A stretch of DNA of 62,940 nucleotides, the filler included, from a bacterium (lineage in GTDB: Bacteria; JALSQH01), in assembly GCA_027004335.1 (NCBI GenBank). It is 10 parts of 10 records of this genome, joined end to end, with 100 filler letters (N's around TTAATTAATTAA, not from the genome) between each part and the next. Parts side by side here need not be neighbours in the genome. Positions count along the whole stretch, not along the records: positions 46,301 to 53,396 come from JALTID010000210.1; 9 more parts are not named here. One strand, given 5' to 3'. The notes under the pieces were generated by a model, which was not told the origin of the DNA, did not search any database, and saw nothing but the letters and a program-made list of their open reading frames with translations. Positions 7,353-60,632 of this stretch are shown piece after piece. A program made the position numbers and the translations under genes. Every line of letters begins with the position of its first letter. Positions within the stretch are counted from its first letter, which is position 1.

Positions 7353-7452
7353 NNNNNNNNNNNNNNNNNNNNNNNNNNNNNNNNNNNNNNNNNNNNTTAA
7401 TTAATTAANNNNNNNNNNNNNNNNNNNNNNNNNNNNNNNNNNNNNNNNNNNN
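7353..7452. other. Artificial contig spacer
   Basis: 44 N + TTAATTAATTAA + 44 N. The same spacer occurs at 14776-14875, 22049-22148, 24509-24608, 31746-31845, 38980-39079, 46201-46300, 53397-53496 and 60533-60632. Confidence 0.99.
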
Positions 7453-14772: not shown

Positions 14773-14875
14773 GGGNNNNNNNNNNNNNNNNNNNNNNNNN
14801 NNNNNNNNNNNNNNNNNNNTTAATTAATTAANNNNNNNNNNNNNNNNNNNNNNNNNNNNNNNNNNNNNNNNNNNN

Positions 14876-15672: not shown

Positions 15673-16671
15673 TCAAAATTCGTAGCTGTACTTAAAGACA
15701 ACACCTCCTAACTGATCTGGATTCTTCACTCCTGAAATAGTACTCTTAAGAGGCACCATCACATACATACCGGCAAGGGCAAATGTCCCGTATTCTGTCT
15801 GAAAACCGGCCTCCATCACCCCGTTAAACCCAAGGGCAAAACCATTATAATCTTCAGGTCTCTTAATGTAGTATGAGTTCTGTTTTAAATAATAGCTGGT
15901 ATGGTAAAAACAGAAAGAAAGATAGGGTCTGAAACCAAGATAAAATTTGTCAGTTAACCCATAATTCAACCCTGGTCCCAGAGAAATGATGTTCATAGAA
16001 TTTTCCCAGTGAGCTTCGAACTCACCTATCTGTGGATCACTCTGAGAGAAATCAGTTTTACCACCCAATCTTGTATAATCTATACTTCCAGCTAAAATTA
16101 TTCCGGGATTACTCTTGAAAAGTCCCTTTACATTAAACTGACCACCCACTCCAAAAACTAGAGAATTATAGATATTCCCTATGAGATAACCTCCAAAGAT
16201 GAAAGGCTCTATCCCTTTCTTTTCTTTCTCGGAAGAAACACGAATAAGGGCGATACTGCCTCTTGGAGGAACCCATCCATAAATAATATAATCCCCAGGC
16301 ATGGAGATAGTAAGCTTCCAGATCATAGTTCTTCCAAGATAAAAATTACCCCACCTGCGCCGGGTTGGAAGAGCAGTAAAAACCTTCTTCTTGAACAATT
16401 TTTTGTTTCTGAATATTTCAATTCCCACTTTTTGAGGCGTAGGGGAAATTAGAAGAGGTACAATTTTAACTCTGAAGGTACCGGCAGATCCAATTTTCAA
16501 AAGAACAGGATATTTTTTACCCAGATACGCATATGCTCTGCCCTCCAGACTCGTTCTCCCCCCTTTTCTTGTAACAACCTGGATTTTTGCATCCGCCATC
16601 AGTGATGAAGAAAAGAGAAAAATTATAATAACTACAAAAAACTTTCTTACATCCTTCATCTCAAACCTCAC
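15673..16671 (-). CDS. Secreted protein with probable C-terminal outer-membrane beta-barrel
   Basis: Signal peptide, alternating aromatic/Gly strands and the C-terminal signature FKYSYEF. Confidence 0.65.
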   Translation of the reverse strand: MRFEMKDVRKFFVVIIIFLFSSSLMADAKIQVVTRKGGRTSLEGRAYAYLGKKYPVLLKIGSAGTFRVKIVPLLISPTPQKVGIEIFRNKKLFKKKVFTALPTRRRWGNFYLGRTMIWKLTISMPGDYIIYGWVPPRGSIALIRVSSEKEKKGIEPFIFGGYLIGNIYNSLVFGVGGQFNVKGLFKSNPGIILAGSIDYTRLGGKTDFSQSDPQIGEFEAHWENSMNIISLGPGLNYGLTDKFYLGFRPYLSFCFYHTSYYLKQNSYYIKRPEDYNGFALGFNGVMEAGFQTEYGTFALAGMYVMVPLKSTISGVKNPDQLGGVVFKYSYEF

Positions 16672-19600
16672 TGTTCCGAAAACTCAATCACATAATCTTT
16701 CATCAAGCTGTGACCACTGGTATCTTTTACACCCTGAGTAAATACCAGATAGTAACTATTACCACTCTGTAAAGACAAACCGTCACAGGTTATCTTCTTA
16801 TTGCCGTTATCAAAAGCGTAAGAGCCACAACTAATATTCCCTCCAGAATCTGCATCGTATAGATAGAAAGTAGTATTATCCACAGATGTGGGATCAACAC
16901 CAATATTAGTATAAACAGTTACAGATGAAGAATAGTTTATCGTTTCACCATCAGATGGAGTACTGCAAAGAACCTCGGGGACTGAATCTGTAGCGGAAAA
17001 ACTAAAGGTGTAATCTGCTCCCATGGGTGTCCCACCAAGATCAGTTATAACAGAGCCATCAAGTGTCACACTATAGGTCACTCCACCTGCAAAGGGTTCA
17101 GCAGGGATAAAGGAGAAGGAATTTGTGGTCCACTCGCCACCCATTGGTACGATACATCCCTCCACACTGAATGTTTTTCCACAGGCGCTGTAAGTGACCT
17201 GAAAACTTCCACTTCCACCAGAAGTATCAGGATAAATCGTATTTACTGCTATAGGTTCACTGAAATTAACAACTACTGTGGTTGAGGTTGTTACTCCCGT
17301 TGAGCCATTGGCGGGGGATGTTGATACCACCACCGGAGCATCTGACTCCGTAGTAAAATTATATATCTCCTTTACCCCACTAGAATTACCTGGATCATAA
17401 TTGTTCAATGCCATATCCTTTACATACTTGGATAGATAAACATAATAGGTTGTTCCTCCTATATATGGAGAATCTGGAACAAAAATTATCTGATGAACTG
17501 AGTAACTATCTATCACCTTTACCTTCCCACTCAGACAGTTTATTGAATTTAATAAACCTGGGGCCGTATCAAGCCCTTGCACAGAAGATACACAAAAATC
17601 TACCTGATTTGTTACTGAAGCTGGATAAATATTTTCATCAAAATCCACAACCACTGGCGAGGTTACCGTTGTTCCTCCAGTTTGAGTCAGAGGGGTAGTA
17701 ACATTCTGAACATTAGGTGGATTAGATTCCACTGTAAAGGTAAAAGATACATCTATGCCCCCATTCCTGCTGGCATCTGCCGCATCAGAAGTAGAAATAA
17801 GGGTGTAGTCTTGGCCATGGACCATGTTCTCAAGTGGTGTAACCCTTACAATTCCCTGATCATCAGCGGGGTTTACAGGATCATAATCAATTCTGATTGG
17901 TAAATGATTACTGCTGGAATCTTTAAGATAAAGTATATTATCCTGAAGTGACGCAACAAGCATATCCTGGTCATAAGTTAGATCAAACCATTCATCCCCA
18001 TGTATTGTTTGGCCATTACCTGAATTACTTGTTGAACCATATTCACTCACCACACTAACTGTTCCAACACCATTGTTAGCGTTTCCAGTAGGCGTAAAAG
18101 TCCCACTTGAATATATAACTGGATTGCCTACTTCATCACGAATGTCTGAATAGATATAGTAGGTATGTTGATCTCCATTGGTAAATTCTGGAACTGGTAT
18201 AAACGTCGCGCTTCTTGTTCTATCATCATAAGCAATTAAACCTACCTTCCATTTCCCTGCTGTATCATCATATATTTTTAAAGTATCATCATTTATCGTG
18301 GTTATATCCATTGCCCTTGAAAAAACTATTATGAAATTCGTGGTCTGTTCCTTAGCATATTCCACAATATAAGTTGTTTTTTTACTGGTATGGAATTTAT
18401 ATCTATAAGTCCTTGCAAGAGGATTATTCTGATATGTTCTAATTCCACTCTCTCCACCAATAACAACTGCAATATAGTCTTTGTCAAAATCAAGATAGGA
18501 TAAGGGAACAAGCTTAAAAGACTTACTATTTAATTCTTCAATGGAGCCAGTTACTTTAGAACCGTAACTATCCTCTATGTATAAAGAATCAGTTGTCACA
18601 GTTGTAACATTTATAGGTTCACCAAATTTCACAATTAGATAAGAAGTAACGGGAACATCTTTATTTTGTCCGGCAAGAAGGTTCCTGGTAACTTTATAAT
18701 TTTGCATTCCTACACTACTGATAAGGGGATCATTCCTTGTAGTAAAAGAGCTTACATATTCATTGAGATGTTCTCCACTATTTGATTCAATTCTTGCCGT
18801 GAGATGTATCTTATAAAGCTGACCATACCTGAGGGGAAGGACTCCTCTCCTACATGGAGTACTTTGAGGTTGTGGGTAGATAAATATTCTATCTATTGTG
18901 TTAGCAGTTCCATCACCAAGTCCGTCATAGGTATCACCAGAATCAGGCAGAAGATCTGTAGTATCATCATATTTTATTTTCACAGGGACTGTTCTTACAA
19001 AACCATTATCATCTGTATAGGTCAAATAAGCATCAGTATTGTCAATTGAGGACTTTTTCATCATTGTGGTAAATTTTACCTCTATAACTTGTGAAACGGG
19101 GACTCCAAGTTCTCCATTTGGAGGTAGTACATACTCAATCAGTGAAGATGTTCTTGTTCTAAATCCAGAGGTAAATGTCTCTGTTAGAGATTGATTATGT
19201 ATATCCAGAACATTTCTGGAAATTACTACAGTATAAACTGTATCATACTCAAGTTGCTGTGAAGGAATAAGGACCGCTGTTCTCGGATAGGTCGCTGAAA
19301 GCGGATATTTAATAGTGGAAGTAACTGCCTGAGATGCTAAGGTCTCAGGATTTGAATAGCCTGTAACATCCCCTTTCACAATAAAGAAATTAGGTTCATA
19401 ACCATCACTGGAATAGCTGCTATCTGAAGTGAGAGTTTTCCCATATATAGGGGAAGAAAATGTTATATATATCTTGCCGTTTATATCAAAACCTACCTTA
19501 CCAGGATGGGGAATGATCTTTTCAACAGTAAGTGGAGGATATTTAGCTGTGGTGAAAGTATAATCTACATCCTGGGAGAGAAATCCACCCTCAATTGTTG

Positions 19601-21029
19601 CATCAGAAGCTCTAACCCCATTTACTCCACCTTTTATCCAGACATGATATAAAGTATTGTATGATAACTTCTCCACAGGTTTAAGTGTAACTTTTGTTCC
19701 ACCAGACAACGTCAGAGTAGCAGGTATTTTTGTAGTAGTATCAGTGTCATATGTAAGATAAATATTGTCTGATGTTACAGAATCTGGAGATAGTTCATTG
19801 CTAAAAATAAGCTGAATGGTTGTAGAGGGGTCTATATCAACTGCACCCTTTGAAGGAAGTGCAGCAACAAGGGTAAGAGGGGGAGGATCAAGAGTCTTGA
19901 AAGTTATAGTTACATTATTAGGGATCAACCAGCCCTGTTCCCATGTGGCTCTTGTAGATTTTATCCCCGAGGGACCACCTGAAATTAATATAGAATATGT
20001 CGTGGAATATGTAAGTGAAGAGGGATAAATTGTTACCACAGTACTACCCGGTGAATACTGGTAATTAAATGCAATAGGCGTCCCAGTTGTTGTATCAATC
20101 AAACCTATATTTCCTGCAAAAGATGATGGGGAAATTGCCTCTGAGAAATATAATTTTACTACAGAAGAGAGAGCAATATTATCTGATTGATCAGAGGGAG
20201 ATGAAAAAGCAAGGAACAGTGGAGGGGGATCAACAATTTTAAAAGGAATATTAATTGCATCAGGTTCCAGCCAACCAGAAACATCTGTTGCTCGCTGACT
20301 CTTTACTCCTTTAGGACCACCTATAATTTCTATTTCATACATAGTTGAATAATCAAGATAACCCTGCTCCTTCACATGGCCTGAAAAAGGTGTAAGAGAA
20401 AGTGTAACAACTGTAGATGATGGGGAATAGGAAAGATTAAAAGAAATATTTTTCCCATAAAATGGACTTTCAGGATCAACATTTTTTACCACAATACCTG
20501 AAAGAGAGTCAGGATTAACAGTTTCAGAAAAATAAAGTTTTATAGTTGGTGTTCTTGAATTATTATCGCTACCAGGCTCTGGAGTGGAGTATATAAGCTG
20601 GAGAGGGGGTGGATCAACTGTGTAAAAAGAAAAATCAACTTCCTTGGCAAGATTGGAACCATCCTTAGCTCTCCTAAGCCCCTGAGTAACTTTTACAATA
20701 TAAGTCGTACTGTATTTAAGAGGTTTCTCTGGCATAAATGTCACAGTGTAGGATGTTGCCTGGTAGGAGTAGGTCCCATTTATCTGGTTACCCGCTTTAT
20801 CAGTAACTACGATGGCCTGGGAATTAATGGTAGACTGAACTACTCCATCGGAAAAGGTGATTTTAATCGCGGTATCCAGTGGTACATTATCCTGTCCCGA
20901 TGGTGATACCGCAATTACCTGAAAAGGATGAACCACCTCGATGGTGAGTTTCTGCTTACTACATGAAAAAAGAAAAAATGCAAGCAGAAAAATAAAAATA
21001 GCTTTACCTCCCTTCAAAAATCTATCCAT
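16668..21029 (-). CDS. Large lipoprotein with tandem bacterial Ig-like (Big_5/SbsA-type) domains
   Basis: Lipobox LFSC; repeated units P..G..VP....I.I.FS....Y.T.Y.V...G...D..G..L...F.T; Thr/Ser-rich. Confidence 0.85.
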   Translation of the reverse strand: MDRFLKGGKAIFIFLLAFFLFSCSKQKLTIEVVHPFQVIAVSPSGQDNVPLDTAIKITFSDGVVQSTINSQAIVVTDKAGNQINGTYSYQATSYTVTFMPEKPLKYSTTYIVKVTQGLRRAKDGSNLAKEVDFSFYTVDPPPLQLIYSTPEPGSDNNSRTPTIKLYFSETVNPDSLSGIVVKNVDPESPFYGKNISFNLSYSPSSTVVTLSLTPFSGHVKEQGYLDYSTMYEIEIIGGPKGVKSQRATDVSGWLEPDAINIPFKIVDPPPLFLAFSSPSDQSDNIALSSVVKLYFSEAISPSSFAGNIGLIDTTTGTPIAFNYQYSPGSTVVTIYPSSLTYSTTYSILISGGPSGIKSTRATWEQGWLIPNNVTITFKTLDPPPLTLVAALPSKGAVDIDPSTTIQLIFSNELSPDSVTSDNIYLTYDTDTTTKIPATLTLSGGTKVTLKPVEKLSYNTLYHVWIKGGVNGVRASDATIEGGFLSQDVDYTFTTAKYPPLTVEKIIPHPGKVGFDINGKIYITFSSPIYGKTLTSDSSYSSDGYEPNFFIVKGDVTGYSNPETLASQAVTSTIKYPLSATYPRTAVLIPSQQLEYDTVYTVVISRNVLDIHNQSLTETFTSGFRTRTSSLIEYVLPPNGELGVPVSQVIEVKFTTMMKKSSIDNTDAYLTYTDDNGFVRTVPVKIKYDDTTDLLPDSGDTYDGLGDGTANTIDRIFIYPQPQSTPCRRGVLPLRYGQLYKIHLTARIESNSGEHLNEYVSSFTTRNDPLISSVGMQNYKVTRNLLAGQNKDVPVTSYLIVKFGEPINVTTVTTDSLYIEDSYGSKVTGSIEELNSKSFKLVPLSYLDFDKDYIAVVIGGESGIRTYQNNPLARTYRYKFHTSKKTTYIVEYAKEQTTNFIIVFSRAMDITTINDDTLKIYDDTAGKWKVGLIAYDDRTRSATFIPVPEFTNGDQHTYYIYSDIRDEVGNPVIYSSGTFTPTGNANNGVGTVSVVSEYGSTSNSGNGQTIHGDEWFDLTYDQDMLVASLQDNILYLKDSSSNHLPIRIDYDPVNPADDQGIVRVTPLENMVHGQDYTLISTSDAADASRNGGIDVSFTFTVESNPPNVQNVTTPLTQTGGTTVTSPVVVDFDENIYPASVTNQVDFCVSSVQGLDTAPGLLNSINCLSGKVKVIDSYSVHQIIFVPDSPYIGGTTYYVYLSKYVKDMALNNYDPGNSSGVKEIYNFTTESDAPVVVSTSPANGSTGVTTSTTVVVNFSEPIAVNTIYPDTSGGSGSFQVTYSACGKTFSVEGCIVPMGGEWTTNSFSFIPAEPFAGGVTYSVTLDGSVITDLGGTPMGADYTFSFSATDSVPEVLCSTPSDGETINYSSSVTVYTNIGVDPTSVDNTTFYLYDADSGGNISCGSYAFDNGNKKITCDGLSLQSGNSYYLVFTQGVKDTSGHSLMKDYVIEFSEQ

Positions 21030-22048: not shown

Positions 22049-22148
22049 NNNNNNNNNNNNNNNNNNNNNNNNNNNNNNNNNNNNNNNNNNNNTTAATTAA
22101 TTAANNNNNNNNNNNNNNNNNNNNNNNNNNNNNNNNNNNNNNNNNNNN

Positions 22149-24508: not shown

Positions 24509-24608
24509 NNNNNNNNNNNNNNNNNNNNNNNNNNNNNNNNNNNNNNNNNNNNTTAATTAATTAANNNNNNNNNNNNNNNNNNNNNNNNNNNNNNNNNNNN
24601 NNNNNNNN

Positions 24609-31529: not shown

Positions 31530-31845
31530 ACTGAACTAACCTTACCATAGAGTTTCTTCTTTATTTTATCAGGTGAAATTTTTTCCACAACACTACCCCA
31601 CATTGCACTTTACTTAAAAATTTTTCTTTAACATAAACACTGAAAACATTGCTGCCTGCTGCTGTTTTGGTTGTGTTGTTATTATATCTACCACTCTGTC
31701 CCTTTCTATCTTTTGCTCAGCCTGATCAAGATGCTCTATCTTTACNNNNNNNNNNNNNNNNNNNNNNNNNNNNNNNNNNNNNNNNNNNNTTAATTAATTA
31801 ANNNNNNNNNNNNNNNNNNNNNNNNNNNNNNNNNNNNNNNNNNNN

Positions 31846-38979: not shown

Positions 38980-39079
38980 NNNNNNNNNNNNNNNNNNNNN
39001 NNNNNNNNNNNNNNNNNNNNNNNTTAATTAATTAANNNNNNNNNNNNNNNNNNNNNNNNNNNNNNNNNNNNNNNNNNNN

Positions 39080-46184: not shown

Positions 46185-46300
46185 AACAAGAGGCTAATTC
46201 NNNNNNNNNNNNNNNNNNNNNNNNNNNNNNNNNNNNNNNNNNNNTTAATTAATTAANNNNNNNNNNNNNNNNNNNNNNNNNNNNNNNNNNNNNNNNNNNN

Positions 46301-47653
46301 TTAGAAAAATTAAAAGAAATAGTGGGGAAAAATTTTCCCTCTGCTTCTGTTGAGGATCTCTATCTTTACGGTAGAGATGGTGGTTCCACCCCACCCCGAG
46401 AGGTTGATTTTGTAGTTGCTCCCGGTAGCGTGGAAGATGTACAGCAGATAGTTAAGTTTGCCTATAATGAAGGGATCCCCATTACTCCATCCGGGGCTGG
46501 ATTAACTCTCAATGGTCTTACCCTTCCTCTTAAGGGGGGGATTGTACTTGATATGAGGAGGATGAACAGGATCATTGAAGTAAATAAGTTGGCAAGATAT
46601 GTGGTGGTTGAATCTGGTGTTACCCAGGGGTTTCTCCTCTCCTATCTCAAAGAAAACTATCCTGAGCTGCAACATTCACTTCCTGAGGCACCCCCCGCTG
46701 CTACAGTGGTTGGGAATCTTTTAATAAAGGGTCACGGCACCCAGGCTTTTTATGGAGAAAATTCCGATATGATAAATGGTCTTGAAGTGATCCTTCCTGA
46801 TGGAGAAATAGTTTATACAGGCTCCAGATCAATCTCAGACTACTGGTTTACCAAGGGACCCCTCCCTGAGCTAACAGGATTGTTTATCTCCTGGTTTGGG
46901 ACCACAGGCATTGTCACAAAGGCTTCTCTCAGACTCTTTCCAAGAACCAGGTTTAAAGATGCGGTACTTTTTGTAACAGATGACGCTGAGCTTCTTCCAC
47001 CTCTAATATATGAGATCACATCTACAAGACTGTTTGACAACATTGGAATGCTTGGTCAGGATCTCCCTGAATATTTAAAGGGACATAAATTTGTAGCTGT
47101 TATGATCTCAGGGAATTATGAGGAAGAGATAGAACTTAAAAAAAGAATTATCTCCTCTGTGGAAGAAAAAGTTGATGGAGTGACTCTTATCCAGCAGATA
47201 CCTCCAAATATTGCTAAGAGATTTATGGAGGAACCTCCCTTTGCAGCAGTTGCCGCTGATTTTAGAAAGGGGGGTGGATTCCAGTACTGTGGTTCCATGA
47301 TACCACTTGAAAAAGTGCCAGAGGCGTGGGTTGAAGGGGAGAAGATCGCCCACAAATATAATTTTTATTTTTCATGTGCCAACCAGGTACTTGCCTATGG
47401 TCATGAAGTTATGTTTGGATTCAACTACTCCTTTAACAGGGCGGACAAAGATGAAATAGAGAGAGTAAGAAAAGCAATGAAGGAAACCAATGAACTTGTT
47501 GTTAAATTGGGGGGGATCCCATGGAAGGCTGATACTTACGGACAGAAACTCATCCTTGATAAGATGTACCCGGGGACAAAAAAGCTGATTGAGAAGATCA
47601 AAAAACTGCTTGATCCTGAGGGAATAATGAATCCCGGCAACTGGGAGAGTTAA
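46301..47653 (+). CDS. FAD-binding oxidoreductase, GlcD-like (5' truncated)
   Basis: VVAPGSVEDVQ, GGIVLDMRRMN, GLEVILPDG, GTTGIVTK and LDPEGIMNPG. Confidence 0.88.
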   Translation, partial: LEKLKEIVGKNFPSASVEDLYLYGRDGGSTPPREVDFVVAPGSVEDVQQIVKFAYNEGIPITPSGAGLTLNGLTLPLKGGIVLDMRRMNRIIEVNKLARYVVVESGVTQGFLLSYLKENYPELQHSLPEAPPAATVVGNLLIKGHGTQAFYGENSDMINGLEVILPDGEIVYTGSRSISDYWFTKGPLPELTGLFISWFGTTGIVTKASLRLFPRTRFKDAVLFVTDDAELLPPLIYEITSTRLFDNIGMLGQDLPEYLKGHKFVAVMISGNYEEEIELKKRIISSVEEKVDGVTLIQQIPPNIAKRFMEEPPFAAVAADFRKGGGFQYCGSMIPLEKVPEAWVEGEKIAHKYNFYFSCANQVLAYGHEVMFGFNYSFNRADKDEIERVRKAMKETNELVVKLGGIPWKADTYGQKLILDKMYPGTKKLIEKIKKLLDPEGIMNPGNWES

Positions 47654-47656
47654 TAT

Positions 47657-48823
47657 ATGGGCCTTGATGAATACAGAGAGATAATTCATAGATGTTTTCG
47701 TTGTGGTTTCTGCAAATTAACAACTGATTACAACTGGAGAGGCTTTAACTGTCCGGAGTATAATAAATTCAGACTTGAGAGTTACTCTCCAGGTGGTATG
47801 CTCTGGCTCTCCTATGCTGCTTTTGTAACTGGAGAATTAAAACCAGACAACCATCTTGCTGAGATTCTGTATTCCTGCTCCATGTGCAAAAACTGCGCCC
47901 AGAGTTGTAAATTTAAATTTGGTGATATGGTAACTGAGATGCTCCGAAAAACAAGAGAGGAAATTGTAGAAAAACACCCTGAATTGGTTCCTGCGGTGGT
48001 TCAAAAATTTTTAAAGAATGTTTATAGATATGGAAATCCATATGGTGTAAATTCCTCCGAATTTAAAAGCATAGAAAAGATTCCTGGTGTTGAAAGATAC
48101 AGTAATCAGGAGTACCTCCTCTATCTCTCCCCCATCTCCTACATTGAACCTTCTGCCTATGAATCTGCCCATTCTCTTGCTGAGGTTTTAGTGAAGCTAA
48201 AAATCTCCTTTGGAATTATAGGACCTGATGAGATCTGTGACGGGAATGAGGTTCTGATGTTAGGTGATTCAGCCCTTTTTGATTATGTGAAGGAGAAAAA
48301 TCTTGAACAATTCAAAAAAATGAATGTTAAAAAAATTATCACATTCTCCCCCCACAGCTACAATGCCATGAAAAACTACTATTCTATGGATGAAATAGAA
48401 GTATTTCATTATACTCAGATTATTTATGACTTTCTTAACAAAGGTAAAATTAAATTTAACAGGGGACTTAATAAAAGGATCACCTACCATGATCCCTGTT
48501 TTTTAGGAAGATACAACGGTATTTATGAAGAACCAAGGGAGATTTTAAGGTCAATTCCCGGTATAGATTTTGTTGAAATGCCGAGAAACAGAGAAAAGGC
48601 TTTTTGCTGTGGTGGTGGAGGTGGTAATTTTTATACTGATATGATTGGCCCTGGTGAAAATGCACCATCCAGAGTTAGAGTTAGAGAAGCTGAGGAAACC
48701 GGTGCGGAAATTATTGCTGTTGCATGTCCTGTATGTAAGTTAATGCTGGAAAACGGGGCGCAGGGAGAAGATTCAAAATTAGAAATTAAAGATATATCAG
48801 CTATCCTTCTTGAACTCCTTTGA
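47657..48823 (+). CDS. Fe-S oxidoreductase with CCG domain (GlpC/HdrD-like)
   Basis: CFRCGFC, CSMCKNC...C, YHDPCFLGR, CCGGGGG and ACPVC. Confidence 0.9.
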   Translation: MGLDEYREIIHRCFRCGFCKLTTDYNWRGFNCPEYNKFRLESYSPGGMLWLSYAAFVTGELKPDNHLAEILYSCSMCKNCAQSCKFKFGDMVTEMLRKTREEIVEKHPELVPAVVQKFLKNVYRYGNPYGVNSSEFKSIEKIPGVERYSNQEYLLYLSPISYIEPSAYESAHSLAEVLVKLKISFGIIGPDEICDGNEVLMLGDSALFDYVKEKNLEQFKKMNVKKIITFSPHSYNAMKNYYSMDEIEVFHYTQIIYDFLNKGKIKFNRGLNKRITYHDPCFLGRYNGIYEEPREILRSIPGIDFVEMPRNREKAFCCGGGGGNFYTDMIGPGENAPSRVRVREAEETGAEIIAVACPVCKLMLENGAQGEDSKLEIKDISAILLELL

Positions 48824-49474
48824 ATATTTCTTACTTAGACTTTCCATTTTTTCTCTAAACTCGTTGAATGCCTCAATTCTTATTTTCATTATTGTGTCCA
48901 GAGGCTGGTTCTCTAGTTCACTTAGTATCCCGTAATTGTAAAGGCTGACGATACCATGCAGTGTGCTCCAGAGGCGGATTAAATTTATTCTTGCTTCCTG
49001 CTCAGGGGTGCCCGAAAAGGCTTCTCTGAGAAGTTTTAATATAAAATTAAACACCTTCAGACCTGTTTTTTTACTTTCTGATGCCAGTTTTTCCGCGTCT
49101 GTTCCTACAAAATCTGTATACCTCGGGGCAGAAGTCATGAGCATCACTTCATAGTAGTTTTTGTTTTTTATTGCAAAATTTATGTATGCTTCCCCTACAT
49201 TTAAGAGTTTTTCAAGGGGGGTTTTCCCGGAAAGAGTTAAAGAAGATAAAGCGGAATAGAGTTTTTCAAAAGCCCTTTTTAACAGGGTAAGATAAAGTGC
49301 ATCTTTACTCGGAAAATAATTGTAAAGATTTGCTGCAGTCATACCTGTTCTCTTGGCAATATTTCTCATACTCAGATTTGCATAACCTTCCCTTGTTATT
49401 ACATCAAGGGCTGCAGCAAGAATTTTTTCTTTTACCTGTTCAATTTCTTCCGGGGTTCTTGGTAACTTTGCCAT
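48797..49474 (-). CDS. TetR/AcrR family regulator
   Basis: [32 protein letters not shown] and WSTLHG. Confidence 0.92.
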
Positions 49475-49595
49475 CTCTTCATCCCCTCTCAAGAATTTGT
49501 AGTATTAAACCTATTTATATTTATAATTGGTAAGAATGTCAAGGGTAAGACTTTATTATTTGATTTTATTTTTGTGAAATATATAATAATGCTAA

Positions 49596-49645
49596 ACTCC
49601 TTGCTCTTCCTTCAAGAGGGAGGGCTAAAAAACCATGAGGAGGTG
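49596..49645 (+). promoter_or_regulatory. S6:S18-type ribosomal protein leader
   Basis: CTCCT at 49597-49601 can pair with SD AGGAG at 49638-49642, enclosing hairpin CTCTTCCT / AGGGAGGG; lies directly upstream of the bS6 ATG, downstream of TATAAT at 49582. Confidence 0.7.
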
Positions 49646-49648
49646 CTT

Positions 49649-50230
49649 ATGAGAGTCTATGAGACTATTTTTATTCTTGGTGAAAAGTTAGAGGATCCAC
49701 AGATTTCAGAGGAAATTGAAAAATATCGCAAACTCATTGAAGAAAGTGGTGGTGACATAATTTCTGTGGATAACTGGGGTAAAAGAACCCTCGCTTATGA
49801 GATTCAGAAAAATAGAAGAGGGACTTATGTTCTTATAAAATTTCAGGGGGAGGGAGACATCATTAAGAAGCTTGAGAGAAGATTTAGACTTGACGAACAT
49901 GTTATTAGATTTTTTACTGCAAAGGTTGAGCAGAAAAAGGAAGGGAAAAAGAGGACCAGAAGATCCGGGCAGAATGGAGAGTATAGAAGAGGAAGGAAGA
50001 AATATGGAAGGTTCTGCGAAGATGGAGTTGAGATTGATTATAAAAATCCTCGTTTACTCAGAGATTATATTACAGAAAGAGGAAAAATTCTTCCAAGAAG
50101 AGTTACCGGTACATGCGCAAAACATCAGAGGCAACTCACCGTTGCGATAAAGCGGGCAAGAGTTTTGGCATTAATACCATTTACAACTGTGACAAAGAAG
50201 ATTATAATTTTACCAAAGGATTTGAAATAA
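49649..50230 (+). CDS. rpsF: Fused 30S ribosomal proteins bS6-bS18
   Basis: [26 protein letters not shown] (bS6) continues in frame into [39 protein letters not shown] (bS18). Confidence 0.93.
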
Positions 50231-50249
50231 AATAGCGAGGAGGTAGGTA

Positions 50250-50711
50250 ATGGAGGTGATTCTCCTAGAAGATGTGGAAAAATTGGGGAAAATAGGAGAT
50301 GTTGTTAAGGTTGCTGATGGCTACGCAAGGAATTATCTTATCCCCAAAAAGTTAGCGGTAAAGGCAGATCCCAGAAGAGTGAAAGAGTTTGAGCATAAAA
50401 AGAGAATGGTCCAGAGAAAGATTGAAAAGAAAAAGAAGATGATGGAATCTCTTGCAGAAAAACTTTCTGGGGTTAAACTAACCTTCCATAGGAAAATAGT
50501 TGAAGGAGAGGAAAGCAAGATATATGGCTCTGTTACGATTAATGACCTTCTTACCGCTCTTCAAAATGAAGGAATAGAAGTTCCCAAGAATAGTGTAGAG
50601 TTGGAAAAGCCGTTAAAGCAGTTAGGTGTCTTCACTGTGCATGTGAAGCTGGATCTGGGGATAAAAAGTGAGGTACAGGTGGAGATAATGCCTGAAGATG
50701 AAAATAAGTGA
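50250..50711 (+). CDS. rplI: 50S ribosomal protein bL9
   Basis: MEVILLEDV..LG..GDVVKVADGYARNYLIP and KIYGSVT. Confidence 0.97.
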   Translation: MEVILLEDVEKLGKIGDVVKVADGYARNYLIPKKLAVKADPRRVKEFEHKKRMVQRKIEKKKKMMESLAEKLSGVKLTFHRKIVEGEESKIYGSVTINDLLTALQNEGIEVPKNSVELEKPLKQLGVFTVHVKLDLGIKSEVQVEIMPEDENK

Positions 50712-52074
50712 AGATATAGGGGGAAAAGTACCCCCTCAAAATCTGGAGGCGGAAGAGTATTTACTTGGGAGTTTGCTTCTTGATAATTCTCTTGTTGATT
50801 CAGTGGCTGGTGTAGTATCTGAAAAAGATTTTTACAAACCTGCTCATGGGGTGATTTTTCGGCATATGCTACTATTACGGGATAGGGGTGACCCCATTGA
50901 TGTAGTCACTTTAACTGAATCACTTACAAAATCGGGGGAAATAGAACTCACCGGTGGAGCATCATATATTGCTTCTCTTGCGGATGTTGCTCCATTGGCT
51001 TCTCATGCTGAAGATTATGCAAGAATTGTTAAAGAAAAATCTGTTTTGAGAATGTTGATTCGTGAAGCAACGAGGATTGTTGATGAGGCATACATGCCGG
51101 AGAAGGATGTTGAAACATTTTTTGGTGAGGTGGAGAAGAGGATCTTTGAGATATTAGAAAGCGGTCAGCCAGAAGTCCTTGTTCCAATAAGGGATGCTCT
51201 TGAAGAGGTAATGGGAATACTTGAAGAACTCTCCTCCTCCCCCTATGCAAGGATTGGAATATCCACAGGGTTTGAAGATCTTGATAATATTATATATGGT
51301 TTGCTGCCCGGCAACTTTATTATCCTTGCTGCCCGACCCTCTAAGGGTAAGACTTCTTTTGCTTTAAATATAGCAACCAATGTTGCGATGAAGGGCTTTC
51401 CTGTGCTTTTCATTTCCATGGAGATGCAGGTTAGAGAATTAATTAACAGAATGCTCTCTTCAATGTCTGGAGTTCCCCTTGATATTATAATTAAAGGACT
51501 TTTTGGTCAGAGTGGCATGTTGAAAATTTACAAGGCTTATGAGAGCTTGAAGGATCTTGATATTAAATTTGATACCTCTTCAAGAACTCTTTATGATGTT
51601 AGGACCAAGATAAGAAAATTTGTTAATGAAAATTATAGAAAGTATAAGGATAAGAATAAATTAGGGCTTGTGATTATAGATTATATTCAATTGATGACCT
51701 CTGGAGGTAGAAGTGAGAGAAGAGAATTAGATGTAGCAGAAGTATCCAGAGGATTAAAAAATATTGCCAGTGATCTTAATATCCCTGTTTTTGCTCTTTC
51801 TCAATTGAATAGAGAGGTGGAAAAAAGAGAAAGAGTGGAGCCGCGGTTATCAGATCTCAGGGAATCTGGCGCTCTTGAACAGGATGCTGATCTTATAATG
51901 TTTATTTATGATCCTGATGAACTGAAAAAGAAAAAAGATGAAGCGGTACGGAAACAATCACGGGATTTTCAAAGATTGATTGTTAAGGTAGCCAAACAGC
52001 GAAATGGTATGTTGGGATCTGTAGAATTCCAGTTTTATAAAAGATTGACACTTTTTAGAGAAGTAACTATTTAG
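50698..52074 (+). CDS. dnaB: Replicative DNA helicase
   Basis: PPQNLEAE, AARPSKGKT, IIDYIQL, LSQLNR and SDLRESGALEQDAD. Confidence 0.97.
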   Translation: MKISEDIGGKVPPQNLEAEEYLLGSLLLDNSLVDSVAGVVSEKDFYKPAHGVIFRHMLLLRDRGDPIDVVTLTESLTKSGEIELTGGASYIASLADVAPLASHAEDYARIVKEKSVLRMLIREATRIVDEAYMPEKDVETFFGEVEKRIFEILESGQPEVLVPIRDALEEVMGILEELSSSPYARIGISTGFEDLDNIIYGLLPGNFIILAARPSKGKTSFALNIATNVAMKGFPVLFISMEMQVRELINRMLSSMSGVPLDIIIKGLFGQSGMLKIYKAYESLKDLDIKFDTSSRTLYDVRTKIRKFVNENYRKYKDKNKLGLVIIDYIQLMTSGGRSERRELDVAEVSRGLKNIASDLNIPVFALSQLNREVEKRERVEPRLSDLRESGALEQDADLIMFIYDPDELKKKKDEAVRKQSRDFQRLIVKVAKQRNGMLGSVEFQFYKRLTLFREVTI

Positions 52075-52844
52075 GTTATTATCTTCCAGATAGCAGTGGT
52101 GGGAAGAAGTTCCATTTTCATTTCTGTTATTTCTTTTTTAAAATTTCTAAGGAAATCGGTATCATATTTATAACTCGTGAGTTGAGGTCTTACAATTTTA
52201 TCCTCTGAAGAACACAGTACGGTAGGAGTTGCTGCAAGAGCTCCTGTAATAATCAATTCATACGATCCAATTTTGTTAATCAGCCATTCTTTCCCCATGG
52301 CATCGCAACCGATAAGAACTATGTCTCTTTTGCGTGAAAGTTTTGCCAGATTTTCGTCCTTTGTTACAAAGGTCCTGATTCCATGTTTTCTCAATTCCTC
52401 CGCAGTCTTATATCCCTCCATGGCAGGATGCCCTTCTCCAACAGTTACTGTAAAATCTTTCCCCTCTTCACGAAGCGCAATTAAAGAGGAGATAACCATT
52501 TTGCTGTGAGAGATTGTCACAAGTTTTTTTACCTCAAGTTTTTTTAAGAAATTTACGCATTTTTTTACAGGTTCTTGGTGGATTTTCTTCAGGTGCGTTC
52601 TGAAATCAATCAGGTGTTCTTTGAGATTGTCCCTGTAATTTTCAAGGTGATAGGCAATGTAATGCATCTGGATCATAGGGGGGAAATTTTTTCTAATCTC
52701 AGCTGCTGTCCATTTCAGAATTTCAGGGGTAATTTCTTTTTCATATTCAATGAGGACTTCAATGATCTTTTCCTGGAGGTAGGTTGCACCGTGGGTCCTG
52801 TCTTCTAAAAGTTGCTGAAGTTTTCCTATTACCTCTTTGCTCAT
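52071..52844 (-). CDS. eIF-2B / sugar-phosphate-isomerase-like fold protein
   Basis: D.THGA, TISHS..V, EGHP.MEG...A..L and VLIGCDA....INKIGS. Confidence 0.7.
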   Translation of the reverse strand: MSKEVIGKLQQLLEDRTHGATYLQEKIIEVLIEYEKEITPEILKWTAAEIRKNFPPMIQMHYIAYHLENYRDNLKEHLIDFRTHLKKIHQEPVKKCVNFLKKLEVKKLVTISHSKMVISSLIALREEGKDFTVTVGEGHPAMEGYKTAEELRKHGIRTFVTKDENLAKLSRKRDIVLIGCDAMGKEWLINKIGSYELIITGALAATPTVLCSSEDKIVRPQLTSYKYDTDFLRNFKKEITEMKMELLPTTAIWKIIT

Positions 52845-53396
52845 TTTATCCCTATCCTGCAGATAGTTACATAGGGGCAGTAGTTGCAGAAATTCTCCTC
52901 AAGGGGATCGGGGTAAAAAGGGATTTCTGGGTTGGTGATTGCGGATAGTAACGGGGTAAGAATTTTTTCCCTGAAAGTTTCAAGTTCAACCTCAGATTGA
53001 GCGGGGATTATCTCTTTAAAAATATCATCTTCTTTTGTTTTTCTTATAAAATAAAAAGCTGAGGAAATTGGAAATGGATCTTTTTCTTTCGTGGTTTTAT
53101 AGTAGAGATAAGAGTAGATGGCGAGCTGTGTGGAACCAATTTTCTCATAAATGTTTTTTCTCAACTCCTTGTCTTTTTCCAGGGTTAAGGGTGGAGAAAA
53201 TGTTTCTTCTATTATTGTATCCCAGAGTTTCTTTCCTCTGGTGTATCTGTCAGGTTTTCCTCCTGTTTTGTAATCAATGATTTCAATACACCCTTCTTTT
53301 CTCTGGATCCTGTCTGCAAATCCCTTAATTTTTACACCAAATCCAGCAATATTTTCTTTACATGACATCCCTTTCTCCAGAGCTTCTACCACAGCC
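52841..53396 (-). CDS. PD-(D/E)XK nuclease domain protein, AddB-like C-terminus (5' truncated)
   Basis: GFADRI, IIDYKTG, QLAIY and C-terminal CNYCPY..IC. Confidence 0.8.
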
Positions 53397-53496
53397 NNNN
53401 NNNNNNNNNNNNNNNNNNNNNNNNNNNNNNNNNNNNNNNNTTAATTAATTAANNNNNNNNNNNNNNNNNNNNNNNNNNNNNNNNNNNNNNNNNNNN

Positions 53497-53536
53497 CGTC
53501 ACGCTTTCCTGCCGTTTTTTATCAAGAGGATAATTC
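53497..53536 (+). repeat. 40-nt near-identical copy of 46161-46200 (probable contig overlap)
   Basis: 38 of 40 nt identical between one contig end and another contig start. Confidence 0.9.
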
Positions 53537-54736
53537 ATTGAAAAGGTCAGTATAATTCATCAGCAATCTTGTGATTAGAAATTTCTCTCTTACAATTTCT
53601 CTTCCTCTTTTACCAAGAAGAGCGGCAAGTTCAGGGGCCTTCAGAATGTCAATTACCCTTTTAGCAAATCCATCAACATCTTCTGGATCTACTAAAAAGC
53701 CATTATACCCATCTTTGATTTGAAGTGGTATTCCTCCAACAGCAGAAGCAACTACTGGTTTCCCTTTCCAGAGTGCCTCAGTTACCGTAAGACCAAATCC
53801 TTCTCTCAAAGATTTCTGAATTACTACAGCAGCCTTCCTCTGCAGAGCATTAACAAGGAAGTTGTTCTCAAGGCTTATAAGAACCAGATCCCCGCTTTTT
53901 ATAAGGTCTGAATATTTTCTCTCTATCCTTTCAAAGATATTCCATCCTTCCGGATCATCTGTGGCCATACTCCCACAGAGAACCAATCTTACATCCACCT
54001 CTTCTTTAACTTTCCGGAAAATTTCAATAACTCCTTCTGGATCCTTCCATTTATCAAATCGGGACACCTGCAGCATAAAAGGTTTCTTATCATAATCTGG
54101 AATAAACTTTCTTAAAAATTTATCAAATTCCTCCTCAGGAAAATCTCTGTTCTTTGATGAAAGAGGATCTATAGCAGGATAAAATATCCTTTGTTCAATT
54201 GGAAGATCGTGCCTAACATAAGCCTCATTGGATACGATCATAACATCGTACCTCAATATAAGAGGGCGCAAAAAATCACAGATCTCCTCATTGGGATTGG
54301 AGAGGTCCACATGGCATCTCCAGACCCAGGGTTGTCTCTTTTTATAAAACTTCACGAGTGGAAGAGGTTGAGGATCATGAATCACAACTATATCATGATG
54401 TATATGGGTATAAACAGAAAAATTTTCATTGGTCTGAAAATAAAGATCCTTTTTCCTTTCAGTAAGATGGATCTTATCCCCCTGCAGGGAGTTATGTATT
54501 TTTTTTGTAACACCAAAGAAATCTTCATTAGCATGAAGAATTCTCCATCCCACATCCATTCCTACATCATTGGCAAGGGGTACCATGGTGGAAAGCATCT
54601 CAGCAACCCCACCTCCTTGAAATGTGGAATTAATATTCAATATTTTTTTGTTGTAGAGCCGTCTTGCCTTCCTGTAAATTTCTGTGATCACAACATCATC
54701 CACTATCCCCCTGTAATTTTCAAGTGTAATCACCAT
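53522..54736 (-). CDS. treT: GT4 glycosyltransferase, trehalose synthase TreT-like
   Basis: INST..GGGVAE, IHDPQP, WRCHVD, QVSRFDKWKD and EGFGLTVTEALWK. Confidence 0.88.
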   Translation of the reverse strand: MVITLENYRGIVDDVVITEIYRKARRLYNKKILNINSTFQGGGVAEMLSTMVPLANDVGMDVGWRILHANEDFFGVTKKIHNSLQGDKIHLTERKKDLYFQTNENFSVYTHIHHDIVVIHDPQPLPLVKFYKKRQPWVWRCHVDLSNPNEEICDFLRPLILRYDVMIVSNEAYVRHDLPIEQRIFYPAIDPLSSKNRDFPEEEFDKFLRKFIPDYDKKPFMLQVSRFDKWKDPEGVIEIFRKVKEEVDVRLVLCGSMATDDPEGWNIFERIERKYSDLIKSGDLVLISLENNFLVNALQRKAAVVIQKSLREGFGLTVTEALWKGKPVVASAVGGIPLQIKDGYNGFLVDPEDVDGFAKRVIDILKAPELAALLGKRGREIVREKFLITRLLMNYTDLFNELSS

Positions 54737-54748
54737 ACTTCCTCCTAT

Positions 54749-56935
54749 CTAAGTTAAAAATGCCTGAAGAAGATATCTAACCATAACTGGATTTTCTACA
54801 TAAAATTTAGCCTTGGATGGTTTTATGCCAACCTTTACCGAATATGCATTTTCAGGGAGAATATTAAATACATCTTCATCTGTTTTATCGTCACCGGCGG
54901 CCAGAATAAATTCCCATTCTTTCCTTTCCAGCCATCTTTTCACTGCTGCACCTTTATTGATGCCGGCATTTTTTATTTCAAGTACCTTATCACCTTCAAG
55001 AACAGAGAGGTCCTTATTGGCAATAACAGGAACAAGAGCTGATTTTAATTCTGCACGCTTCTGCACCACCTGTTCAGGATCTGCCTCACGGAAATGCCAA
55101 GCAAGAGAATACTCTTTTTCTTCAATAAAACTGCCCGGAGTTGAGAGCATAAACCGTTCAAGGATATTACGGATTTCATCCTTCCATGAACTGTCCACAG
55201 GTTCAATTGTATACCACTCACCATCTCTCTCTCTTACCCATACCCCATGTTCTGCCACTAAGTGCAGAAAATTTATCTGATCAAACCACTTTTCAAGAAA
55301 CTTCCTGTCTCTTCCACTGATTACAACAACATCAGCATTCTCTATCTCAGTAAGCTTTTCTAAAATTTCAAGAATCTCGCTATCAGGAACAGCATATTCA
55401 GGTCTCTTTTGAAGAGGGATAAGAGTACCATCATAATCAAGTATAAGCAGCTTACTTCTGGCAGAGGAAAACTCTTTTTTTATCCTTTCTGTGAGTGCAG
55501 GTGTTAATTTTTTCCCTTTTCTCTCCTCTATCTCCCCCTTAACCTGAATAAGTTTATCCACAAAATCCTGGGTCCACTTGCGAATATCATACCTTCTGAT
55601 CCTCTCCTGCATAAACCTATTTCGTTTAACTTGTTCATCCTCATCCATGGTAAGAGCTTCAAAAAATGCATTAGAAATCTCTCTAATATCATAAGGATTA
55701 ATGATAACTGCCTCATTCATCTCCCTTGCAGCTCCAGCCATTTCACTGAGTATGAGAACTCCTGGATTATCCTGCTTAACAGTAACATATTCCTTTGCCA
55801 CAAGATTCATACCATCACGAAGAGGAGTAACAAGAGCAACATCTGCAGCAAGATAGAACACGGAAAGATTCTTCTGAGAAAATGATTTATAATAAAAGTG
55901 TAGAGGTATCCAGCCAGAGGAACTGAAGTTACCGTTGATCTCACCTACAAGTTCACTTACCTCTCTTTTGATCTCAGCGTAGTATTCCACATCTTCCCTG
56001 GAAGGAACAACAATTAAAATGTAAATTATCTTTCCATGGAACTCGGGATGCTTCTTTAAAAATAGCTCAAATGCCTTCAGCCTGTTTATAATCCCCTTGG
56101 TATAATCAAGTCTATCCACAGAAAGGATTATCTTCCTATTCCCTGTATTTTTCTTTAATTCATCTACCCCTTTCAAGACATCTTCATCTCTACTCATTCC
56201 AATCCAGAATTGATAATCTATACTAATCGGAAAAGCATCAACCTTTACGGGTCTGCCGTTGAGTATATAGGAAAGGTCGTTCTCATAACCGAGAACTTTC
56301 AGCACGCTGTTTAAAAAATAATTACCATACTCATAGGTGTGAAACCCAATAAGATCAGATCCAATCAAACCTTCAAGAATCTCCCTCTTCCACGGAATGA
56401 TCCTGAAAACCTCATATGCAGGAAAGGGGATATGGAGAAAAAATCCTATAGTGGCATCTGGAAATTTCTCGCGTATCATTGCTGGTAGCAGCATCAGATG
56501 ATAATCATGAATCCAGAGAAAATCCCCCTTCCTATAAACTCTACTCAAAGTTTCCGCATACTTCCTGTTTACTTTAACATATTCCTCCCAGTAACTCTCA
56601 TTAAATTCAATATACTGCGGAAAATAATGAAAAAGGGGCCATATTACCTTATTGCTGAAACCATCGTAGAAATTTTTTAAACTCTTTCTGGCAAGGAAAA
56701 CTGGAAAACATTTCTCCGCATTTAACTTATGGGCTATTTCAATGATATCGTCCTCGTTAAGCTCCTCTCTTGCGATTCCTGGCCAGCCTATCCAGAGAGT
56801 TTCATATTTATCTGTGAGGGAGGAAAGGGCACTGGCGAGACCCCCTGGACTTTTTGTATAGACTAATTTTCCTCTGGATTTCCTGATGGTAAATTTTGAG
56901 CGATTAGCAACTATAATAAGTCTTGATTGTTCCAT
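54749..56935 (-). CDS. Bifunctional trehalose-6-phosphate synthase/phosphatase (OtsA-OtsB fusion)
   Basis: [26 protein letters not shown] and DGMNLVAKE, then HAD motifs LDYDGTL and GDDKTDED. Start moved to MEQSRL. Confidence 0.95.
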
Positions 56936-57050
56936 TATTATTATTTTAGCACTTTTCGTGGGGTTTGAAAATGGGGAAATATCTGTCACATTCTTTTTCA
57001 TTGACTCATAACTCAACATTCATTAAGATTACCTAAAATAGGAGGATGGG

Positions 57051-60532: not shown

Positions 60533-60632
60533 NNNNNNNNNNNNNNNNNNNNNNNNNNNNNNNNNNNNNNNNNNNNTTAATTAATTAANNNNNNNNNNNN
60601 NNNNNNNNNNNNNNNNNNNNNNNNNNNNNNNN

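Follow-up and report, generated by a model that had tools for sequence, protein, structure and literature searches.

The locus holds, in order, a tetR gene on the minus strand, a fused rpsF-rpsR gene, rplI and dnaB, with no ssb or priB inside. It belongs to a stretch of DNA of 62,940 nucleotides, called the window here, which consists of MAG contigs strung together with N's: there are 792 N in total, present as paired 44-N runs flanking the spacer TTAATTAATTAA, and the contig pieces measure, in order, 7,352, 7,323, 7,173, 2,360, 7,137, 7,134, 7,121, 7,096, 7,036 and 2,308 bp. Since the window is made of joined contigs of a fragmented MAG, gene neighbourhood across the joints is meaningless. 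The GC content is 37-40%. The 193-aa fused protein (P0001), the DnaB and other genes of 46301-53396 correspond to database records on a 7,096-bp contig; the sole record of P0001 comes from this contig, the window's own, and adds no independent support. The contig and the joints lie as follows.

46301..53396, no strand: MAG contig bearing the fused gene, 7,096 bp, with spacer-type N runs on both sides
7353-7452, 14776-14875, 22049-22148, 24509-24608 and 31746-31845: the first five N joints (44 N + TTAATTAATTAA + 44 N)
38980-39079, 46201-46300, 53397-53496 and 60533-60632: the last four N joints, of the same make-up

The genes and features of the locus itself are these.

48797..49474, minus strand: divergent gene for a TetR-family regulator, 225 aa from ATG (Pfam TetR_N and TetR_C_33); the 225-aa form is found under NCBI and ENA
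49560..49587, plus strand: promoter-like TTGATT-16-TATAAT, 10/12 consensus matches, a consensus match only
49596..49645, plus strand: predicted 5' leader hairpin, in which a CUCCUU arm pairs with GAGGAG of the rpsF Shine-Dalgarno sequence
49637..49644, plus strand: Shine-Dalgarno sequence GAGGAGGT (AGGAGGT motif), 4 nt before ATG 49649
49649..50230, plus strand: fused rpsF-rpsR ORF, 193 codons from the ATG start at 49649, then TAA (50228-50230)
49649..49930, plus strand: bS6 domain, residues 1-94 (PF01250, TIGR00166; AF2 pLDDT 97-98)
49931..50005, plus strand: junction, residues 95-119, where the basic C-terminal tail of S6 meets the basic N-terminal tail of S18 (pLDDT ~62)
49974..49986, plus strand: out-of-frame ATG 49974-49976 (offset +1) and TAG 49984-49986 (offset +2), from an insertion scan
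49979..49984, plus strand: codons 111-112, GAG TAT; the relatives' rpsF stop falls at Glu111 (ungapped) and their rpsR Met over Tyr112
50006..50188, plus strand: bS18 core, residues 120-180 (PF01084, TIGR00165; pLDDT 89-97)
50189..50227, plus strand: C-terminal extension of ~13 aa, from alignment with P0122, P0123, P0124, P0523 and P0524 (pLDDT 61-65)
50250..50711, plus strand: rplI, encoding L9 (Pfam L9_N and L9_C), with a strong Shine-Dalgarno sequence AGGAGGT at 5-nt spacing
50698..52074, plus strand: dnaB (Pfam DnaB and DnaB_C), with a 14-nt overlap with rplI and no Shine-Dalgarno sequence

The fused gene encodes both ribosomal proteins in full. Pfam Ribosomal_S6 (PF01250) matches residues 4-92 (model positions 2-90 of 90, E 6.9e-31, 106.7 bits against a cut-off of 27) and Ribosomal_S18 (PF01084) matches residues 127-176 (model positions 3-52 of 52, E 1.3e-27, 96 bits, cut-off 21), while the NCBIfam equivalogs cover residues 1-94 for S6 (TIGR00166, 88.1 bits, cut-off 42.9) and residues 116-179 for S18 (TIGR00165, 100.9 bits, cut-off 38.75). 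Two full-length domain matches sharing one frame indicate that the ORF is not due to chance. An earlier note on this DNA had described bS6 and bS18 as one polypeptide, a natural single-chain S6-S18, and as to the assembled DNA our analysis bears this out: a single 193-codon frame, stop-free between the domains, carries both of them intact, and S18 has no start of its own. Foldseek returned only S6 chains in the top 50 (TM (target) up to 0.97, E down to 1.9e-12), including PDB 1G1X, which represents a separate bS6/bS18 system; no solved chain spanning both domains is present among the 60 sequences listed and the 50 Foldseek chains. In the AF2 model, computed from a 52-sequence alignment, pLDDT is 87-98 in both domains and ~62 in residues 100-120, with a pTM of 0.81, and the predicted architecture is that of two ordinary domains on a flexible basic tether. 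Full-length equivalog matches, the S6 fold and the operon place beside rplI are features that the fused gene shares with the separate bS6 and bS18 genes (rpsF and rpsR); unlike them, it encodes one polypeptide, has no rpsR start and no ssb or priB in between, and carries Gly in place of the first S18 Cys. No second S6 or S18 match was found in the window's 62.9 kb of MAG.

The linker singled out in the earlier note (23 residues) corresponds to residues 96-118. It was said to hold no in-frame ATG, GTG or TTG, which is correct and can be extended, as none of ATG, GTG, TTG, CTG, ATT, ATC and ATA occurs in frame from after codon 86 (ATT) to before codon 129 (ATT). The lack of any in-frame NTG or ATH in codons 87-128 means that S18, as assembled, is made only as a fusion. 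The plus strand of the junction showed no slippery or structured element. Both sides of the junction align gap-free to the 110-aa S6 tails and the 82-aa S18 N-termini of the relatives, and the length of the fused protein matches their S6 and S18 sizes exactly (110 + 1 + 82 = 193), indicating that no linker was added and that the junction consists of a natural S6 tail and a natural S18 N-terminal tail.

The relatives that define this fit carry the two genes separately. The closest S6 proteins, P0002, P0003 and P0005, show 71-76% identity to the S6 part, are separate proteins and are each exactly 110 aa long. The closest S18 protein is P0122 (85% identity), whose 90% cluster also holds P0523 and P0524, followed by P0123 and P0124 (72-73%); all five are exactly 82 aa long. 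S6 and S18 occur as split pairs in P0002 and P0122 (on a contig of 2,948 bp), P0003 and P0523 (longest contig of record 26,004 bp) and P0005 and P0524 (2,888 bp), hence as separate genes in 3/3 nearest relatives with both on one contig. The DnaB P0246 (64% identity) is encoded on the same 2,948-bp contig as P0002 and P0122, indicating that synteny with dnaB is retained. These split relatives resemble the window in their S6 (71-76%) and S18 (85% for P0122) sequences and in a rare S18 C-terminal extension; they differ from it in that a stop follows residue 110 of S6, S18 begins with its own Met and Cys stands in place of Gly120. The suggestion that the fusion could serve as a lineage marker is therefore not borne out, the genes being separate in all three, and on this sequence comparison the fusion, if real, would be confined to one species-level population. 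Two further searches for close relatives were made. A contig-pattern scan with the universal TGTCAKHQ gave, among the matches listed, distant loci only and no close relative, and a metagenome scan for junction DNA of close relatives gave one locus, L106, which ends inside S6 at a contig end.

The S18 half departs from its relatives in the zinc site. The zinc-binding 'C+' form of bS18 has the motif C-x2-C ... C-x2-H. Here the first pair reads G120-R-F-C123, with codon 120 at 50006-50008, against C-R-F-C in 5/5 close relatives, and C156-A-K-H159 is kept. The partial erosion of the site noticed earlier, GRFC at 120-123 with CAKH retained at 156-159, is thus present, and three of the four putative zinc ligands remain, one fewer than the four that define a 'C+' bS18. 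The ~13-aa C-terminal extension of S18 is common only to the five closest S18 relatives and, judged by alignment, looks like a tail specific to this lineage.

Upstream of the fused gene, the region 49560-49660 folds with a minimum free energy of -24.9 kcal/mol (z -1.85), and 7/200 shuffled sequences fold equally well. The hairpin predicted in this leader could mask the Shine-Dalgarno sequence; autoregulation through it is a guess. No Rfam family, the rpsF leader included, matched here at the gathering score, and in 49440-49720 the matches up to E 10 were at chance level only. A Shine-Dalgarno sequence of at least 4 nt precedes 44/56 long ORFs, compared with 123/511 background ATGs.

The close adjacency of rpsF and rpsR from which a fusion could arise is widespread, and fusion itself was absent from the loci and genomes surveyed. 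Among the loci L001-L106, the first 106 from diverse bacteria, 0/99 had both genes in one stop-to-stop ORF, and none of the 76 matching genomes (58 of one class and 18 of another phylum) was fused. In that class (63 genomes, 58 matching) the two genes are in the same frame in 15 cases, split by one stop in 11 and by two stops in 4, the rest giving separate matches; in the other phylum 18/18 genomes matched, with the S6 and S18 matches lying several hundred bases apart and none fused. Five cases that had appeared as an open frame, including the 234-aa G055, G059 and G052, were rejected as fusions, translation revealing a stop between the genes. Many Thermodesulfobacteria- and Desulfobacterota-type genomes (loci L081-L095, from the class of G001, and L001-L006) have rpsF and rpsR in the same frame with one or two stops between them, often as a stop followed by ATG, and in several Desulfobacterota loci the stop is followed directly by the ATG, in frame. 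In such a same-frame, stop-then-ATG layout a single mutation, or a single error of assembly, is enough to produce a fusion. For annotation the lesson is that a singleton rpsF-rpsR fusion should serve as a marker only once reads support it.

Fused S6-S18 proteins are nevertheless well represented in public data. The uniqueness that the earlier note implied had to be given up, as 40 other public proteins carry both domains (by Pfam, 41/41 putative fusions in our alignment, query included). This alignment of 52 sequences comprises the query, 33 of 37 fetched candidates, 7 earlier ones and 11 unfused relatives; P0375, P0378 and P0387 (shortened forms) and P0382 (S6 duplication) were left out. S18 was detected in 49/52 members and S6 in 44/52, as the 8 S18-only and 3 S6-only members predict. 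In a search among proteins of near length, the best 120 include 16 others that carry both Pfam domains, and an exhaustive search through 1.84 billion representatives gave 30, among its best 150, that match the query in one stretch over both halves.

One group consists of P0014, P0016, P0020, P0121, P0386, P0392 and P0400, a fused family whose identities range from 94% down to 38% and whose linkers are long and rich in Arg, Gly, Pro and Glu. Within it, the four 216-aa sequences P0014, P0016, P0020 and P0121 are 90-94% identical to one another and come from contigs of up to 594 kb, the more distant fused kin showing 38-47% identity. Such a pattern speaks for inheritance of the fusion rather than for an error that recurred. 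Beside the 216-aa family stand atlas clusters of 65, 162 and 55 members, 98-100% fused and mostly labelled Gemmatimonadota, one Gemmatimonadota-labelled cluster being named 'Multifunctional fusion protein'; near the query stand clusters of 61, 55 and 55 members, 84-100% fused and labelled Pseudomonadota and Absconditibacteriota. The labels (Gemmatimonadota, Pseudomonadota and Absconditibacteriota) derive from the atlas and not from genome DNA and serve as leads only. A phylum-wide S6-S18 fusion in Gemmatimonadota seems likely on the basis of these labels. No relevant paper on natural S6-S18 or rpsF-rpsR fusions, including those in Gemmatimonadota, was found in the portion of the literature accessible to our search.

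Like the window protein, the public fusions are single chains in which S6 precedes S18 and both Pfam domains are present; unlike it in sequence, they are only 29-47% identical to it. The P0014 family and other long forms (up to 228 aa) have much longer low-complexity linkers, whereas the window fusion has no added residues. For P0014, P0016 and P0020 the identity to the window protein is 30-32% and the linker is ~30 residues longer (216 versus 193 aa). Common descent with the Gemmatimonadota-type fusion lineage was considered and rejected in view of this low identity, the longer linker there and the unfused state of the window's kin. Since its closest kin are unfused, we infer an independent origin for the window fusion. 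If real, it would be an apparently independent addition to the fusions already in databases, and its distinctive point would be that no linker was added.

A near-identical assembly under ENA allows part of the contig to be compared. Its DnaB is 457/458 identical and lies on a 7,083-bp contig (P0243, P0371), and exact copies of the flanking TetR, CCG-domain and L9 proteins are recorded under ENA too. Of nine MAG proteins with ENA counterparts, five match exactly, a sixth does so except for its called start, another differs at 1/458 residues, and the remaining two are of equal length and in the same 90% cluster. Length changes were found in 0/9, which argues that the assembly is not riddled with indels. 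P0001, by contrast with its neighbours, is recorded from NCBI only, and the similarity searches gave no near-identical ENA fusion, S18 (30-338 aa) or S6 (at least 106 aa). The two assemblies may differ at the rpsF-rpsR locus, or the database may be without that product.

How the single frame came about can be weighed on this evidence. We lean slightly towards a real, young fusion in this population. The public precedents, the common same-frame adjacency of the two genes and the exact 110 + 1 + 82 fit count for it, as does, weakly, the lack of a Shine-Dalgarno sequence at ATG 49974 compared with the 7-nt ones at rpsF and rplI, dnaB also being without one; its occurrence as a singleton on a short contig, in a MAG whose contigs are ~7 kb, and the split state of 3/3 nearest relatives count against it. 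A substitution error cannot explain the fusion, because the position of the relatives' Met reads TAT (Tyr112) and S18 would have no start even with a stop at codon 111. The main competitor, which we regard as a lesser but still substantial possibility, is an assembly or consensus artefact. The earlier note had cautioned that an out-of-frame ATG near 49974 could be the true rpsR start if one base had been lost; this caution stands and can be narrowed, as the insertion scan identified one missing base at 49976-49983 as the only change that splits the genes. The true DNA would then be one base longer in that interval, for example with GGG for GG after ATG 49974, rpsF would end at TAG 49984-49986 and rpsR would start at ATG 49974, giving an S6 of 112 aa and a translationally coupled S18 of 85 aa from genes that overlap by ~14 nt (14 nt in the scan). 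A single change thus yields two complete genes near the sizes found in the relatives, with S6 ending in ...GRV, its Arg near their terminal R or K, and coupled starts without a Shine-Dalgarno sequence do occur here, as at dnaB. The short contig of a fragmented MAG, the single record of the fused protein beside three split relatives, and the absence of P0001 from the records of the near-identical ENA assembly fit this explanation too. It requires, however, that the error fell within a target of only 8 nt in an assembly where none of the nine ENA-shared proteins differs in length, and the resulting 112 + 85 aa would break with the 110 + 82 aa that hold throughout the relatives and with which the assembled frame agrees exactly. 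No Shine-Dalgarno sequence was found before ATG 49974, in contrast to the 7-nt ones of the ribosomal protein genes beside it, and a near-identical 112-aa S6 or 85-aa S18 would be expected to top the similarity searches, in which neither appeared.

Two other explanations take the DNA as correct. The copy may not be the working source of S18 and S6, being instead a recently damaged allele, or a minority variant caught in the MAG consensus, with a second rpsF/rpsR elsewhere. The first zinc-ligand Cys, conserved in 5/5 relatives and replaced by Gly here, would agree with this, some bacteria have paralogous S18 genes (bS18A and bS18B are named in the PDB), and the search for further S6 and S18 genes covered only the window's 62.9 kb of the genome. 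We nevertheless consider it improbable, given that both domains are full-length equivalogs with no sign of decay, that the gene occupies the canonical rpsF-rpsR-rplI-dnaB place behind a strong Shine-Dalgarno sequence, and that those 62.9 kb of MAG hold no second S6 or S18 match. It is also conceivable, and in our judgement very improbable, that the ORF is fused and separate proteins are still made, through cleavage in the basic junction, an unusual start codon or programmed frameshifting. The junction is indeed rich in Arg and Lys and predicted to be flexible (pLDDT ~62), but it offers neither a common nor a rare in-frame start codon and no slippery or structured element on the plus strand, and long-lived fused families elsewhere indicate that cleavage is not required.

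S6 and S18 are a textbook ribosomal protein pair whose pairing is required before rRNA is bound. According to PMC4647458, S6 and S18 heterodimerise before binding the complex of S15 and 16S rRNA. For a real fusion, we propose an ancestor in which rpsR came immediately after rpsF without ssb or priB, as in the nearest relatives and many Desulfobacterota-type genomes, and in which the stop of rpsF and the start of rpsR later disappeared. One chain of 193 residues would be translated from the rpsF Shine-Dalgarno sequence and ATG, and its two halves would adopt the normal S6 and S18 folds. It would attach to the central domain of 16S rRNA as an S6:S18 dimer turned intramolecular, with the stoichiometry fixed at 1:1, and translational coupling or a ribosome-binding site for rpsR would no longer be needed. 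The sequences themselves show a single frame with two domains, no start inside it and a length that agrees exactly with the split relatives; we infer the correctness of the DNA, the assembly of the chain into 30S subunits and this route of fusion.

The fullest form of the proposal, which we put forward tentatively and with somewhat less than even confidence, is that in a deep-branching vent bacterium the only S18 is the tail of S6, in a minimal, linker-free and obligate single chain independent of the Gemmatimonadota-type fusions. On this proposal S6 may now keep the N-terminus of S18 in place, so that S18 can do without one of its zinc ligands. If true, it would provide a natural test of whether S6:S18 dimerisation, 1:1 stoichiometry and rpsR coupling can be hard-wired. 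A natural single chain would mean that S6-S18 pairing can become covalent, and studies of assembly and structure could use it as a construct just as it is. Its value is limited by the fused forms that are already public, some of them clade-wide, by its occurrence in one population only and by a junction that rests on one contig.

As to the organism, no protein in the genomes searched is more than 45% identical to its DnaB, which points to a poorly sampled deep lineage; searches of 63 genomes in one class, 401 in the phylum it belongs to and 18 in a second phylum gave no kin above ~53% identity for the fused protein or 45% for DnaB. Of the words sampled, 7% occur in the read run X1, whose label is hydrothermal vent metagenome; no RNA run was listed. 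The matches comprise an exact 151-bp piece at 50527-50677, within rplI, and a distant S18 stretch of 54 nt, with none over the junction, and a 151-bp match in rplI is too little to name a habitat from the label of this run.

Two observations were made on other contigs of the window. At 53522-57019, on a different contig from the fused gene, a gene for a TreT-like trehalose synthase (404 aa) adjoins one for a fused trehalose-6-phosphate synthase/phosphatase (756 aa), a pair that suggests compatible-solute synthesis. The minus-strand gene at 16668-21029 encodes a protein of 1,453 aa with at least 8 Big_5 Ig-like repeats and a weak CopC-like stretch, which is probably a large surface protein.
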